Source: a virus
Lineage: Duplodnaviria; Heunggongvirae; Uroviricota; Caudoviricetes
Virus record (IMG/VR): IMGVR_UViG_2681813230_000002
Span: 1-27,415 of that record
Length of the DNA: 27,415 nt
Direction: 5' to 3' (one strand)
The position numbers were made by a program, and so were the translations under genes. Positions 4,600-11,940 of this stretch are shown here, one piece after another. How positions within the stretch are numbered: position 1 is the stretch's first letter; every line of letters starts with the position of its first letter. The notes beneath the pieces are model-generated. The model saw only the letters and a program-made list of their open reading frames with translations. It was not told the origin of the DNA and did not search any database.

Positions 4600-6702
4600 T
4601 CACACCCAACCTCCTGACGAAGACCACGGATTAGCCTGCTCGGTTACGGGCTTCTCACGTTTTGGTTTTGGTTTAGATTTCGGCGCAGGCGGCGGGGATG
4701 GCATTTCGCCAGCTTCCGTCTGCGTGTCCTCGATCCACGTTTCCCGCCGTGCCCACTCAGGAGCTGACGGCCATTTGATTTTTTCGTAACCACTAAGGAT
4801 GGCGAGCGCGTCGGCATAAACGAGCAGGTCAAATGCTTCGTTTGCGCCCCGGCCGGGCTTACTCCATTTCCCTTCATTCGAGCGTTCCTCATACGTCAGT
4901 TCGTCATAGAACCAGCTGCCCAGCCAGGCGGGGAAATGCACATAGCCAGGGCCGGGTGAATCACGCCACAGCGCATTATTCACCCGGTCTTTAAGGGCAT
5001 CGGTCTGGAGAAGATAAAGAGGCACATCACCAGTCGCCTGTGCGCGGCGCGTTGATCTGCCCGTGTTGTCGGGAAACGTTCGCTGGATAAGTTTGCTGCG
5101 CCTGACGCTGTCCCCTTTGAAGAGATAGATACGCTTACCCAGCCCCTCACGGCGACATCTGCGCCAGAACTTGTAGGCATTATCCGTCACGCCATCTTCG
5201 CCCCCTGAGTCCACGGCCATCGACATCAGCCGCATGCCCTTTGATGGGTCAGCTGCGAGCGGCCACGTTTTATCAAAGACGTCAGTGAGTAAAAGATCCC
5301 AGTCCTCCGGATAGCTCGCCGGATCCACCTGAATGCTTTCACCGTTGCCGTCGCAGCGCAGCGAATGCCGGATGTTGTAACGGTCAACTATCCAGCGCTC
5401 ACCCATACTTCCATAACCCGTAATCTGCACAACAAAGCGCCGGTTGCGCCCGGCCTGCACGTCCACGGTCGCAGTGAGAAACTGCACGCCGTTCGGTACC
5501 GAACGTTTTGGGACGTCTTCGGCACGCTGCTCGAGCAATTCACTTTTACGCTGCTCCATGCTGGCTCGCGGCAAATAGGGCCTGCCGAAATCGGTGTTGA
5601 TCACCGTCTTCAGGGTTTCTTCGCTGCGCGTGGATTCATATTCCTGCTCGGCGGTCAGAAACTTATAAATAAGCTGCGCCCAGGTCTGGTAAGCAGCTGC
5701 CGGACCTTCCATCCAGAAGGAGGCAATACGGGAACGACGGCCATCACCGCTAACCAGGCCTTTCCTGTCGATGGTTTGCCCGTCCCGGAGCCAGACACAT
5801 TTCATGTTAAGCGCACGCTTCATGTCCGGTGTGATCCTGCCTTTACAGGCAGGGCACTGAAGAAACGCCGCTTCGCTGGCAAGCACAGGATCGCTGCTGT
5901 CGCGGTATCCGGTCATATTGTCCATTTCCGGCTGGAAATATTCGCCGCAATGCGGGCATGGCCAGTAAAGACGACGGCGGTCACCACGGTTATAGAGCGA
6001 TAAAATTCCGGTGGTCGGAGGGGCTTCATGGGGCGTGGAGCGCCGCCATTTTGTGTCTCTGATATCCCTCCCGGGCGAGCTCTCAACCAGCGTCATCCCG
6101 GAGGACATGAATGTCGTGGTTCGTTTCGATGCCAGTGAAAAAGCATCCCCCTCCCCGTCGATATCTTCCGGAAAGCGGTCATAATCCGTCAGCGCCACAC
6201 TTTTATAGTCCGAGGACGACATGATATTGACGGATGGCCAGCCCAGCTTCAGATAGTTACCGGCGCGGAATGTACGGTCGTAGACGTTGTTATCGTTACG
6301 TCTTGGGCTTAGCCGGGTTTTAACTTCAGGGCTACAGCGAAAAGTACGGTCCAGGCGTTTTTTGGAATGCTCGCGCGCTTTTTCCTCAGATACCTGAATT
6401 ACAAGCATATCTGCCGGATCGCAGACAATGTTATAAACGATCCAGCCGTCAATCAGCCCGATGGTTTTACCCGTTCGCGCTGGGCCCACAAACACAACCG
6501 CATCGTATTCACGCGATGCCAGACAGTTCATCGGCTCAATCACATAGGGTGCCAGATCCGGATCCCACGGAACTGAGTTTCCCGCCCCCATTGGCACGCG
6601 CATATAAGTACTGACCGCATCGGCCACCGGCATACGACGCGGGGCTCGTAAAATACCGGAAACATCGCGGCGGATGTCCCTGGCGGATGCCCGCTTTGCC
6701 AT
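4600..6702 (-). CDS. Terminase large subunit (lambda gpA family)
   Basis: 700 aa, Walker A-like GPARTGKT near N-terminus, follows Nu1-like gene with 1-nt overlap. Confidence 0.85.
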   Translation of the reverse strand: MAKRASARDIRRDVSGILRAPRRMPVADAVSTYMRVPMGAGNSVPWDPDLAPYVIEPMNCLASREYDAVVFVGPARTGKTIGLIDGWIVYNIVCDPADMLVIQVSEEKAREHSKKRLDRTFRCSPEVKTRLSPRRNDNNVYDRTFRAGNYLKLGWPSVNIMSSSDYKSVALTDYDRFPEDIDGEGDAFSLASKRTTTFMSSGMTLVESSPGRDIRDTKWRRSTPHEAPPTTGILSLYNRGDRRRLYWPCPHCGEYFQPEMDNMTGYRDSSDPVLASEAAFLQCPACKGRITPDMKRALNMKCVWLRDGQTIDRKGLVSGDGRRSRIASFWMEGPAAAYQTWAQLIYKFLTAEQEYESTRSEETLKTVINTDFGRPYLPRASMEQRKSELLEQRAEDVPKRSVPNGVQFLTATVDVQAGRNRRFVVQITGYGSMGERWIVDRYNIRHSLRCDGNGESIQVDPASYPEDWDLLLTDVFDKTWPLAADPSKGMRLMSMAVDSGGEDGVTDNAYKFWRRCRREGLGKRIYLFKGDSVRRSKLIQRTFPDNTGRSTRRAQATGDVPLYLLQTDALKDRVNNALWRDSPGPGYVHFPAWLGSWFYDELTYEERSNEGKWSKPGRGANEAFDLLVYADALAILSGYEKIKWPSAPEWARRETWIEDTQTEAGEMPSPPPAPKSKPKPKREKPVTEQANPWSSSGGWV

Positions 6703-9484: not shown

Positions 9485-10056
9485 CAGAATACCCCCGGAA
9501 CTGATACCGGAATGCCTGGGTTAAGCGGCCCGAGCCCATCACCAAGAACCTGAGGTTTTTCTGCCCACAGGCAAACTTCACGCTCAATCTCACGCCGGGT
9601 AATCAACCCTTTCCATTGCTTACCACCGGCATATGTCCATCGACGAAGCTGATCACATGCGCCTTTGATATCACCCTGGTTTATTTTGTAGAGAAGAGTG
9701 GAGGTTTTGAAATTGCCAGCACCGACGTTGTAGACAAACGAGTAAAGAGCGCCCCGAGTAGTTTCAGGGATCGGAACCTTGATGTACGGATTAATCTGCT
9801 GCGCTACGGTGGTGAGGTCTTTATTAAGTAACGCTCGACACTCTGCTTTGGTGTAGGTCTTGCCGAGGATAATATCTTTACCAGTATGGCCCCAGCATAC
9901 AGTCCACACTCCAACAACATCCCGATAAGGCTGATAGCGTACACCTTCAAGGCCATCATTACCCGTTGGGCCAGTAATCAACGCCGCAGCGATAGCAATA
10001 GCGCCAGCGGGTATCGCTGCAATAACGCTATTCTTCAGCTTTGGTGACATTGCCAT
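9484..10056 (-). CDS. SAR endolysin (GH24 T4-type lysozyme)
   Basis: 190 aa; N-terminal weakly hydrophobic Gly/Ala-rich SAR-like segment ([16 protein letters not shown]); catalytic-region motif [25 protein letters not shown]. Confidence 0.8.
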
Positions 10057-10306
10057 TAAGCCGGTCCTCCCTTTCCTTTTTCCTGTAATACCAATTCACT
10101 GCACAGGTGATTACAGTGCATGCGATACCGACAATAATTGCCCAGTCGCTCAGGCTTAACCCTGCAATTCTGTCGGCCAACATCCAGGACACCTCTTTTG
10201 CTGTTTTAGCTGTTTCGGCATATGCCTTCGCTGATACACCGCAGCCGGTCAGCGTGGTTCCTGTTCCATATGAAAGTCTGCTGTAAATGGTGCTCATTCT
10301 GGTCAT
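10028..10306 (-). CDS. Holin (putative pinholin-type)
   Basis: 92 aa with TM segment [20 protein letters not shown] and charged C-terminus; overlaps endolysin start; first gene of lysis cassette. Confidence 0.55.
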
Positions 10307-10550
10307 AGCCTCACCTCCGATTTTTCGGATGGCGCTGTGCGTGTATGAAAAGGCTCAGGCTTCACGGGCTGGATTTATCAACAAAGCACGTAGCGGATGA
10401 TTCCCGTGAGCCTGAAATGAAAAAGGCCGCCAAGCGGCAGCCAACAGTCGATTCAATACCGGGATATTTATCCACGCCCGGCGCGTGGTTTCCCTGCTTT
10501 CCACAGACAAAGGAAATTGCTAAATTGGTCATTCCACAGACAATTAGGGA

Positions 10551-10967
10551 ATGACCATGGATGTAGGATTACTTATCGCGTCCCTTAAAAACGGGATCGG
10601 CGCGCTTTCTGCTGTGCAAAGTAACGAGGTCCTGCGCGAGCGCATCGCTTTCATTGGAGAGCAGATCGACGTACTTCAAAAAGCCCATGCTGCCACCATA
10701 GCAGAACTTGCCGAGGCGAAAGCCAAGAACGTAGAACTTGAGAAGGAAATAGCGGCTTATCGGGCAAAGGATGAGTTTGTCGAGCACATGGGTGCGGCCT
10801 TTAGAAAAAATCCCGCGGGTGGGTATATCAGCGCGGTTTATTGCCCCAACTGTCTTAAACAGGTCGGTAGCGGGTTCGATGACTTTCCTTACCATTGCGG
10901 CTCCTGCGGCTGGACTTCAAGATTTGAAGGAAGGGAGATTGATAGCGTAATGAAAACCCTCCCTTAA
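10551..10967 (+). CDS. Hypothetical coiled-coil / zinc-ribbon protein (moron, opposite strand to late genes)
   Basis: 138 aa with amphipathic N-terminal helix region and C-terminal CPNC...18 aa...CGSC pair; AGGGAA upstream of ATG; followed by two hairpins. Confidence 0.45.
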   Translation: MTMDVGLLIASLKNGIGALSAVQSNEVLRERIAFIGEQIDVLQKAHAATIAELAEAKAKNVELEKEIAAYRAKDEFVEHMGAAFRKNPAGGYISAVYCPNCLKQVGSGFDDFPYHCGSCGWTSRFEGREIDSVMKTLP

Positions 10968-10973
10968 TGTTAA

Positions 10974-10993
10974 GGCGAGGGTAGCGCCTCGCC
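10974..10993. terminator. GC hairpin (GGCGAGG-GTAGCG-CCTCGCC), possible terminator for the plus-strand gene
   Basis: Perfect 7-bp inverted repeat immediately 3' of stop at 10967; no strong T-run. Confidence 0.35.
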
Positions 10994-11010
10994 GTTACCT
11001 CCAGAAACGC

Positions 11011-11040
11011 AAAAGCCCCACGGTGTTATCCGCGGGGCTT
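11011..11040 (-). terminator. tR'-like intrinsic terminator downstream of putative late promoter
   Basis: About 10-bp GC-rich stem (one mismatch) followed on the minus strand by TTTTG; sits between Q and the lysis genes as lambda tR' does. Confidence 0.45.
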
Positions 11041-11124
11041 GAAACGAAGGCATTAACCCATCGTTGGGATAAAATTAACACAGATTCGGGAAAAGTAAAT
11101 AGCTGGAATTAACTTCCATAGCCG
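11041..11124 (-). promoter_or_regulatory. Putative late promoter pR' / Q-utilisation region
   Basis: Position immediately downstream of Q and upstream of tR'-like hairpin; candidate -35/-10 (TTTACT...TAATTT) by eye only. Confidence 0.3.
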
Positions 11125-11940
11125 TTATCGTGTTATTTGTTTCAGTTGGTTTTCTGCCCATGCCTCTTCAATATCGAATTTCGTAATCAGCTGATCATAG
11201 AACGGTTTAACGGACTTCTTCCACGTATCCAGGCTGATTACATCCGTAATCTGGCAAATAGCTGCGTGGGCCTCAGTTGAAGGAATGCGTTCATATCCAC
11301 GCCCGCCGCAGCGCTTGCAGTCAGTCATAACCGGCACACCCTGTTTCTTCGTTTCCTTCTGGTCTACGGCTTTCCCACGTCCCCGGCAATCATTGCAGGC
11401 ACAACTGACAACCTTCTTCCCCTTGCAGTTCGAGCACAGCACTCGAACCACCTCTCGAACCTGTCGTTTAACCTCGAAATCACTCGGTGACTGACCAAGC
11501 TCTTTCGCCCATTGAGGAATCCTCATTGAATAATGAGATTTCATTGTGAACACGTCGGCCTCAATAAATCCCTGCCCGCTGCAACAATCACACTGCTTAA
11601 CGCTCGCAGCGCTGCGGGAGTAATCTTCAAAAGCGAAGGTGGCCAACTGGTGCATCACCTTAGGCTTAACCCCGGAATCCAACTTACGCAGTGCGGCAAC
11701 CTTGTCACATTTGGTCATCGCATACTCAGCCAGCAGTCCGATCGCTCGCTCGCGATCGTAATCGCTGATATCCATCTTACCGAGGAATGCACTGAACCCG
11801 AGATCAGCCCGGCTCTGTGTCATTCCGATCGCCGCCATAATGTCAGTGCCGGTTAATGAGTCAGATGCGGTTGCACGTGGAGCGTCGCTAATCATCGTTG
11901 ACTTCGCGAAGTGGTATTTCACTGTGTTTTCGAGATTCAT
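11125..11940 (-). CDS. Q: Late gene antiterminator Q
   Basis: 271 aa with multiple Cys clusters (CDCCSGQG, CSNCKGK, CACNDCRGRG, CKRCGGRG) typical of lambdoid Q proteins; located between nin genes and lysis cassette. Confidence 0.8.
   Translation of the reverse strand: MNLENTVKYHFAKSTMISDAPRATASDSLTGTDIMAAIGMTQSRADLGFSAFLGKMDISDYDRERAIGLLAEYAMTKCDKVAALRKLDSGVKPKVMHQLATFAFEDYSRSAASVKQCDCCSGQGFIEADVFTMKSHYSMRIPQWAKELGQSPSDFEVKRQVREVVRVLCSNCKGKKVVSCACNDCRGRGKAVDQKETKKQGVPVMTDCKRCGGRGYERIPSTEAHAAICQITDVISLDTWKKSVKPFYDQLITKFDIEEAWAENQLKQITR

Follow-up and report, generated by a model that had tools for sequence, protein, structure and literature searches.

Opposite-strand cargo within a phage late operon is a kind of arrangement that is already known. 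The bor gene is expressed from the prophage, and Mnt is made in P22 lysogens. In phi80, taiEcA (orf63) is an antisense gene that interrupts the Q-controlled late operon; its product is present in the lysogen, at a level that falls on over-expression of Q (PMC11364771). The Gifsy-1 isrK locus (antQ-isrK-orf45-anrP) lies in the interval between Q and the lysis genes and has a short, terminated late-strand RNA (Hershko-Shalev et al. 2016, PMC4825925). We have analyzed an opposite-strand gene, c0, in a 27,415-nt stretch of viral DNA (the window; positions 1 to 27,415 of IMG/VR record IMGVR_UViG_2681813230_000002). The window is phage HK225 (JQ086371), reverse-complemented, with 100% identity over the 831 bp around c0, and the gene is already annotated in GenBank, as the hypothetical protein HK225_067. 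Our analysis makes it fairly probable that c0 is carried on a self-contained moron cassette, placed head-on between PR'/tR' and the holin gene of the Q-dependent late operon, and that it acts in the lysogen.

Organization of the locus

On the minus strand of the window the genes run in the order Q, holin, lysozyme, Rz, and 818 bp separate Q from the holin gene (end of the Q stop codon at 11125, holin ATG at 10306). A preliminary description of this DNA had put the gap at about 820 bp and had located in it a plus-strand open reading frame (ORF) of 138 amino acids (aa), two hairpins, a second plus-strand ORF of 69 aa and a minus-strand ORF of 108 aa; all of these features sit where it placed them. 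The antisense gene c0 is flanked on both sides by one unit, with PR' and tR' before it and holin-lysozyme-Rz after it on the Q strand. This fits the layout of a noncontiguous operon, in which an opposite-strand gene lies inside a single transcription unit. The Q protein of HK225 shares 33% identity with that of lambda. Coordinates of all features are collected in Table 1.

The c0 gene and its product

The plus-strand ORF covers 10551-10967 and measures 138 aa when counted from its first ATG. It is a real gene, as had been proposed, but its length has to be corrected to 136 aa, since it is the second ATG, at 10557 (MDVG...), that is conserved as the start codon; it lies 6 nt past an AGGGA at 10546-10550. 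This start agrees with GenBank and an equivalent MD... start is present in all homologues; the ATG at 10551 is an alternative confined to the HK225 type. A word-indexed search found 66 homologous clusters of 136-137 aa, all starting MD and sharing 58-96% identity, from Escherichia, Salmonella, Klebsiella, Citrobacter, Hafnia, Yersinia, Providencia, Morganella, Pantoea, Vibrio and other hosts. An exhaustive profile search gave 466 clusters with E <= 1e-3 (clusters made at 50% identity), nearly all of them 125-145 aa long. Pairwise divergence at codon positions 1, 2 and 3 of c0 is 0.22, 0.13 and 0.36, and the ratio of nonsynonymous to synonymous substitution rates (dN/dS) is 0.06-0.38. The gene is under purifying selection and, judged by its sequence, is certainly a genuine protein gene, far beyond chance. 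The preliminary description had named non-conservation of the ORF in related phages as the finding that would count against it; the ORF is in fact strongly conserved.

The contrary reading, that the plus-strand ORF is spurious and the region is either an untranslated late leader or a place where the 108-aa minus-strand ORF is the sole gene, has next to no chance of being correct. The region does lie within the late transcription unit, and the minus-strand ORF has a good Shine-Dalgarno (SD) sequence and is called by some pipelines. Against this stand the length, start codon and four cysteines of c0, kept down to ~25% identity over hundreds of clusters, the peak of divergence at the third codon position, the low dN/dS, and the predicted local distance difference test (pLDDT) scores of the AlphaFold2 models, which are 91 for c0 and 56 for the antisense product.

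The c0 protein matches PHROG 1244 (unknown function) with an E value of 5.8e-26, residues 3-135 aligning to profile positions 2-155 of 157. Among 82 diverse members, down to ~25% identity, C96 and C114 never vary, and the conservation of C99 and C117 is at least 90%; the cysteine pattern in c0 is CPNC...CGSC, and the motif common to the 82 members is EFVEHRGALFKRxPxGGYxxxVYCPxC...C..CxW. The AlphaFold2 model of c0 consists of a helix at residues 3-20, a 49-residue helix at 24-72, a beta zinc-ribbon domain at 74-124 and a short C-terminal helix, with both CxxC knuckles surrounded by beta strands. With its two knuckles and conserved cysteines c0 has the features of a C4 zinc ribbon, and would be expected to bind metal. 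The combination of a coiled coil with a CPNC...CGSC zinc ribbon, which had been read from the sequence at the outset, is borne out by the long helix of the model and by the conservation of the cysteines. A homology and structure search had been suggested at the same time, and it yields a large family and a confident fold in which all labels are hypothetical, including the source names of ten family clusters.

Beyond coiled-coil noise, c0 has no match in Pfam, NCBIfam or PADLOC. A sequence profile search of the PDB returned coiled-coil noise only, and fold searches of the PDB and BFVD gave nothing specific. None of the PADLOC-DB 2.0 defence models matched c0 at E <= 1, in a library that dates from 2023 and predates systems such as Tai. 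A search of the literature on HK225 and on phage morons, zinc-ribbon and coiled-coil proteins found no paper on the c0 protein. The maximum 19-residue hydropathy of c0 is 1.28, with no signal peptide and no transmembrane segment.

CT398/HP0958 (FlgZ), YabA and DksA/TraR also combine a coiled coil with a zinc domain, but their likeness to c0 is architectural only and not one of family. Matches of c0 to coiled-coil/zinc adaptors are limited to the helical part, and the zinc modules PF01258 and PF02591 are unmatched. PF01258 (DksA/TraR) does not match HK225 c0 and is outside the 25 most frequent families of the 82 members. PF06156 (YabA) is matched by 11 of the 82 at E >= 1e-4, beside many unrelated coiled-coil families, and has no match to HK225 c0 itself. 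Coiled-coil matches of the basic leucine zipper (bZIP) type are seen in 13 of the 82. The c0 family is set apart from these adaptors by its CPxC-x14-CxxC spacing and by the GALFKRxPxGGY hairpin that precedes it.

A portable cassette on the strand opposite its host operon

Comparison with near-identical relatives gives the region around c0 sharp boundaries. Phage mEp237 matches HK225 only over 10029-10428 (94%) and 10998-11200 (86%); it has the holin gene and its leader in common up to 10428, and PR', tR' and Q from 10998 on. In phage Louie a cassette 98% identical to that of HK225 adjoins a lambda-type Q and a holin of another kind. The portable core of the cassette, 10443-10980, recurs with 81% identity in a PL-operon context (loci L049 and L050 of our collection). 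Carriers of the cassette amount to 10 of 5426 complete E. coli genomes and 6 phage records. Its base composition is not deviant (GC 0.51, versus 0.525 for the window and 0.48-0.51 for neighbouring genes). On these sequence comparisons the cassette would be classed as a moron, by its presence or absence with sharp boundaries. The slot in mEp237 (L083, 2130-3141) holds other cargo, a 213-aa late-strand gene, mEp237_056, annotated as hypothetical.

The 73 IMG/VR loci fall into about five context types. The cassette is found between several types of Q and holin; just after Rz (L034, L041-L045); at more than one place in the tail module, beside the tape-measure gene or a virion structural protein gene; and in the PL operon beside N, near a cI-like repressor. 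Single look-ups placed it in a Salmonella tail module, in the replication operon of a metagenomic phage, between cII and O in Pasteurella phage Pmp14, between cro and rha in Haemophilus prophages, beside a P22-Cro-like gene in Castellaniella, and in one further phage. In sum there are at least nine insertion contexts, including PL and PR operons. In every case the recognizable flanking genes lie on the strand opposite c0, and the only same-strand neighbours are cassette companions. Chance orientation across at least nine independent contexts is unlikely (about 2^-9). The mEp237 swap, Louie and at least eight other contexts support the earlier suggestion that the cargo slot between Q and the lysis genes contains an independent moron on the opposite strand.

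Some of these settings resemble an immunity region. In Cronobacter ES2, Salmonella and related prophages c0 is located directly behind an Arc/Mnt-family gene (PF03869), which, within the late region, is itself divergent from an ant/Bro-N antirepressor gene. In Haemophilus prophages without the Arc-like gene c0 is itself directly divergent from the rha/ANT genes, and in immunity-region contexts it is oriented as cI. These immI-like settings favour an alternative in which c0 is a Mnt-like DNA-binding regulator of lysogeny and not a defence protein or one that benefits the host. Acting as a zinc-ribbon dimer, it would repress the gene of an antirepressor or a promoter for lytic functions, and it may also control its own expression by way of the TTCCACAGACAA repeats. 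The conserved direct and inverted repeats that flank the c0 promoter and the bZIP-type matches also favour this alternative. We nevertheless regard it as unlikely. Most c0 contexts have no antirepressor nearby, and no known DNA-binding fold or family was detected in c0. In addition, upstream regions of unrelated classes (TTCCACAG repeats versus a CTGAT-N5-ATCAG palindrome) occur despite a near-identical zinc-ribbon domain, which argues against autoregulation through a co-evolving operator.

Several loci carry further genes in or beside the cassette. In L021-L029 and L073 (5455-5745 (+)) a 96-aa gene without Pfam or PHROG match follows c0 on the same strand and replaces the hairpin at 10974-10993. 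In L063-L069 the conserved promoter is separated from c0 by an 84-aa gene. ORFs of ~170-200 aa beside the cassette in L013 (178 aa) and L063/L065/L068/L069 (182-200 aa) have the look of HNH/AP2-type homing endonucleases, as read from the sequence only. Just upstream of the cassette in L049, a 5.6-kb viral contig, there is a 47-nt match to bacterial small-subunit rRNA (4831-4877 (-); 37 bits, E 3e-7), which may mean that this contig is an assembly chimera.

Transcription signals around c0

By its sequence, HK225 has a late control region of the lambda PR'/tR' type. The PR' elements read TTTACT and TAATTT where lambda has TTGACT and TAAATT, and are followed by an identical CAACGATGGGTTAAT; the initial transcribed AACGATGGGTTAAT, from 11065, is identical to that of lambda. 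As in lambda PR', we take this identical stretch to hold the start site (first A of AACGAT = +1) and the sigma70-dependent pause element (AACGAT). In Louie (L002) the end of Q and PR' are identical to lambda up to CAACGATGGGTTAAT, after which come the HK225-type tR' and the cassette (window 11046-11082 (-)). The initial transcribed sequence that they share seems to act as a joint at which recombination can place different Q/PR' modules on a common downstream region.

The hairpin at 11013-11040 has 11 pairs, with a T-run on the minus strand only in the terminator scan, and is kept in mEp237, Louie and L021-L029. It had been described as also reading as a tR'-like terminator on the minus strand, and both these features and the GenBank annotation agree. 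Its stem ends ~45 bp past the 3' end of c0. In the absence of Q the late transcript would be only ~60 nt long, halting ~45 bp before it reaches the c0 stop codon. As tR' is placed just short of the c0 3' end, Q-dependent read-through would run antisense across c0.

HK225 has two terminators between PR' and the holin gene. The second is located directly upstream of the c0 promoter, ahead of the holin leader, and a G:U pair makes its stem favour the minus strand (-14.1 vs -10.3 kcal/mol). Antisense terminators upstream of c0 are also present in L063-L069 (for example, L066 4378-4394 (-)) and in L035/L054. Their recurrence in PL-operon and tail-module contexts suggests that they are part of the design of the cassette, where they would serve as an insulator. 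On the same strand, window 10497-10420 (-) has a full-length likeness to the Rfam isrK accession (RF01394), including a CCGGG hairpin and the terminator. We reject homology to isrK, because the score of 21.2 bits is below the gathering score of 50 and the match was not recovered in six related loci.

The 114 bp at 10443-10556 travel with c0 into unrelated contexts with 75-81% identity. They contain the predicted c0 promoter, whose motif, TTTCCA-17-TGnTAnnTT, is conserved in all class-1 upstream regions (~75% overall identity); the homologous promoter of L053 was flagged by the promoter scan (TTTCCA-17-TATATT with TG, 9/12). Two exact direct repeats of TTCCACAGACAA lie at 10499-10510 (about -35) and 10532-10543 (about +1), and a 9-bp inverted repeat, GGTCATTCC/GGAATGACC (10527-10535, 10548-10556), covers the SD sequence AGGGA. 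The resulting hairpin folds with -14.1 kcal/mol (z -3.0) and shows one compensatory C-G to T-A change in its stem. Control by LexA was considered and rejected for the tail/post-Rz class, as its CTGAT-N5-ATCAG palindrome is CTG-N9-CAG and not the CTG-N10-CAG of a LexA box, and no LexA box is present within 10443-10556.

A DnaA-box scan identified TTATCCACG at 10468-10476 (+). The upstream regions of c0 contain DnaA-box-like 9-mers in three promoter types that are unrelated to one another: HK225 has TTATCCACG, L021 has a perfect TTATCCACA, and other loci have TTATCCACC and TTATACACA. They lie at -33 from the c0 ATG in L062-L069 and at about -44 in L052/L059/L071. Their density upstream of c0 is 3.0 per kb, versus 0.33 per kb in the loci overall, and they are absent from the tail/post-Rz promoter class. 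The distant homologue in L079 adjoins a phage DnaA-like gene.

Two GC hairpins had been reported downstream of c0, and both are real: the one at 10974-10993 and the tR' hairpin each fold better than 200 of 200 shuffles (z -3.2 and -3.8). A GC hairpin also follows c0 in most other contexts, and the one at 10974-10993 is likely a 3'-end or terminator element of the cassette.

The 69-aa ORF exists as reported and overlaps the ATG at 10551 by ATGA, but it is not a gene. In relatives that are >93% identical its frame shrinks to 9, 32 or 45 aa or opens with another start codon (GTG/TTG), and the Prokaryotic Genome Annotation Pipeline (PGAP) never calls it. Its 5' part (10345-10428) belongs to the holin leader and travels with the holin in phages that lack c0, c0 also occurs without it, and the stretch holds the late-strand terminator and the c0 promoter. 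We therefore reject this ORF as a partner gene of c0. A translationally coupled operon of the 69-aa and 138-aa ORFs could claim the ATGA overlap, the calling of both ORFs in the Louie annotation and a weak match to PHROG 37047 (E 3e-6), but the broken frame makes it very improbable.

Table 1. Features of the Q-holin interval of HK225 and its borders (window coordinates)
Feature	Position	Strand	Basis
Holin gene, first of the lysis cassette	10028-10306	-	PF16080/PF04971; GenBank annotation
69-aa ORF, not a gene	10345-10554	+	Late-operon leader, terminator and c0 promoter region
Second late-strand intrinsic terminator (predicted)	10416-10442	-	Stem 10442-10425, T-run 10424-10416; terminator scan
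Accessory cassette	10429-10997		Extent relative to mEp237, which has different cargo in the slot
c0 regulatory region	10443-10556	+	Alignment of 12 upstream regions
Predicted c0 promoter	10498-10526	+	-35 TTTCCA 10498-10503, 17-nt spacer, extended -10 TGcTAAATT 10518-10526
c0 (HK225_067), 136-aa protein with predicted coiled coil and C4 zinc ribbon	10557-10967	+	ORF; GenBank CDS; homologues; PHROG 1244
In-phase antisense ORF, 108 aa	10569-10895	-	AGGAG 10905-10901, 5 nt before ATG 10895-10893
GC hairpin directly after the c0 stop	10974-10993	+	GGCGAGG-6-CCTCGCC; fold
tR'-type intrinsic terminator (predicted)	11005-11040	-	Stem 11040-11013, then T-run; GenBank rho-independent terminator
Late promoter PR' (predicted)	11060-11099	-	-35 TTTACT 11099-11094; -10 TAATTT 11077-11072; alignment with lambda, Louie and mEp237
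Q antiterminator gene	11125-11940	-	PF03589, E 1e-47; GenBank annotation

The open antisense frame of c0

The 108-aa minus-strand ORF is exactly in phase with c0, so that antisense stop codons correspond to the c0 codons TTA, CTA and TCA. In 42 distinct coding sequences these codons occur twice within codons 6-119, as against 75 times in the 22 terminal codons. Third-position A is found in 1 of 21 CTN/TCN columns versus 29 of 63 other four-fold columns (Fisher p 4e-4). In AT-rich lineages the codon usage of flanking genes predicts 5-6.5 antisense stops and none is seen (P(0) of 2e-4 to 1.5e-3 each). For 14 lineages together the expectation is ~55 and the observed number is 3, although the combined probabilities overstate the significance because the lineages are related and not independent. 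The Haemophilus homologue uses TTA for none of its 4 TTR codons, yet has A as the last base in 83% of its other two-fold codons that end in a purine. Even far homologues (31-46% identity) have 105-170 open antisense codons. The companion genes c14, c87 and the Arc-like genes contain scattered antisense stops, and the open frame is specific to c0.

The start signals of the antisense ORF are also preserved. Its ATG complements the His113 codon, CAT in 39 of 39 sequences, and its AGGAG is the complement of the Ser116 TCC (36 of 36 TCN codons there) and the next Cys codon; neighbouring synonymous sites vary freely. Gene callers report the ORF in 30 database clusters, nearly all with 108 aa. The leucines of HK225 c0 are mostly CTT, and CTG, the usual enterobacterial codon, is almost never used. 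The antisense codon of CTT is AAG (Lys), and this preference may reflect a constraint from the opposite strand. The preliminary description had treated the plus-strand and minus-strand ORFs as alternatives. The plus-strand gene is real, but the minus frame also shows signs of selection.

These data raise the possibility of dual coding, which we consider conceivable but doubtful. The 108-aa antisense ORF would be translated from the late, lytic transcript and have a function of its own, for example in counteracting c0 during lytic growth. With similar reserve it may be put more generally: both strands would be selected, c0 being read from its own promoter and the antisense AGGAG-ATG ORF from the antiterminated lytic transcript, and either the product or the act of its translation would matter for the lytic growth of the phage. 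The depletion of stops and of third-position A, the preserved start signals, the specificity of the frame for c0 and the called clusters all argue in this direction. On the other hand, the AlphaFold2 model of the antisense product is poor (predicted template modelling score 0.25, a single helix mirroring the coiled coil), so that the product is predicted to be unfolded, and no family matches were found in the libraries scanned. Antisense positions 1, 2 and 3 vary by 0.36, 0.13 and 0.22, the reverse of a normal gene. Codon bias alone also yields long in-phase antisense runs, such as 296 codons in nmpC, and in far homologues the antisense start codon is at a different place, L088 having no ATG at all. 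A generic cause, anti-polarity through translation of the late mRNA across the insert, was found insufficient, as antisense stops abound in the companion genes of these cassettes. That the antisense frame stays open throughout the family is a statistically supported, unexplained observation. If dual coding were true, the cassette would be a two-state, two-strand module with, for example, a built-in antidote or off-switch for c0, and its position only antisense to lytic operons would be accounted for. Were the antisense frame translated, it would offer a rare example of antisense dual coding that has been conserved in evolution and is linked to the switch between lysogeny and lysis.

A model for c0 in the lysogen

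The explanation that we favour is that of a lysogen-acting gene on a self-contained cassette. In the lysogen, transcripts from PR' would stop at tR' and c0 would be transcribed undisturbed from its own predicted promoter, with the upstream antisense terminator keeping stray divergent transcription out of the holin gene. After induction, Q-modified polymerase would pass tR', cross c0 in the antisense direction and dampen its expression on the way to the lysis genes. The c0 product would be a soluble, probably dimeric protein, a parallel coiled coil bearing two C4 zinc-ribbon heads. It most likely acts in the lysogen by binding a protein or nucleic-acid target, and may either guard the lysogen against other phages or help to hold lytic functions down. 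A role in the lysogen is suggested because c0 is always off the lytic strand and because in some phages it is co-transcribed with a Mnt/Arc-like repressor. That c0 is expressed in the lysogen at all we infer from architecture and context.

Several points weigh against this model. The c0 promoter of HK225 (8/12, with TG) is below the threshold of the promoter scan and was missed by it. The hairpin at 10974-10993 has no plus-strand U-tract and is non-canonical as a terminator. In phi80 the level of TaiEcA is unchanged by mitomycin induction and drops only on over-expression of Q (PMC11364771), which implies that antisense shut-off may be weak. A role in defence is drawn purely from the position of the gene. 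Finally, an accessory cassette does not in itself explain the open antisense frame.

The c0 family is compact and uncharacterised, and it is spread over hundreds of clusters in Enterobacterales, Pasteurellaceae, Vibrio and Betaproteobacteria. Its antisense orientation is unusually consistent, and the family is therefore a promising place to look for a new function encoded by prophages.

Comparison with known systems

The preliminary description had called an opposite-strand gene in this slot unusual. This was overstated, in view of phi80 taiEcA, antisense in a Q operon, and of DLP12 nmpC, which lies on the opposite strand between quuD and essD, in the same Q-S slot as c0 in HK225. A second precedent, bor (lambda; borD in DLP12), is on the opposite strand after Rz, a position that c0 also takes in the post-Rz loci listed above. 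The nmpC and bor units consist of promoter, gene and terminator and are expressed from the prophage, as is established for bor. Their products belong to the envelope, nmpC being a porin and bor a lipoprotein, whereas c0 would be a cytoplasmic coiled-coil/zinc-ribbon protein.

The immI region of P22 (mnt / arc-ant) has a layout like that of the Salmonella and Cronobacter ES2 prophages in which c0 is second behind an Arc/Mnt-family ribbon-helix-helix gene diverging from ant/Bro-N. By analogy with P22 we infer that the Mnt-like unit in these layouts is the lysogenic one. The HK225 site has neither an Arc-like gene nor ant, and P22 immI has no counterpart of c0. The Gifsy-1 isrK locus occupies the corresponding interval with cargo genes that differ from that of HK225.

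For the way in which the HK225 cassette probably works, the closest functional analogue is phi80 taiEcA, a divergent accessory gene within a Q-controlled lambdoid late operon (He et al., Nat Commun 2024, PMC11364771). TaiEcA is a 26-kDa inhibitor of tail assembly (PMC11364771) and is unrelated to c0 in sequence. Its gene is upstream of the packaging genes, while c0 is between Q and the holin gene. The antidote to TaiEcA is encoded nearby by a late gene of its own, atiEcA; for c0 there is no such separate antidote gene. A conserved antisense ORF is not reported for tai, and c0 has one. Antisense accessory genes in lytic operons are emerging as sites for prophage functions in defence or lysogeny that need silencing during lytic growth, and Tai of phi80 provides the worked example with which c0 can be compared.

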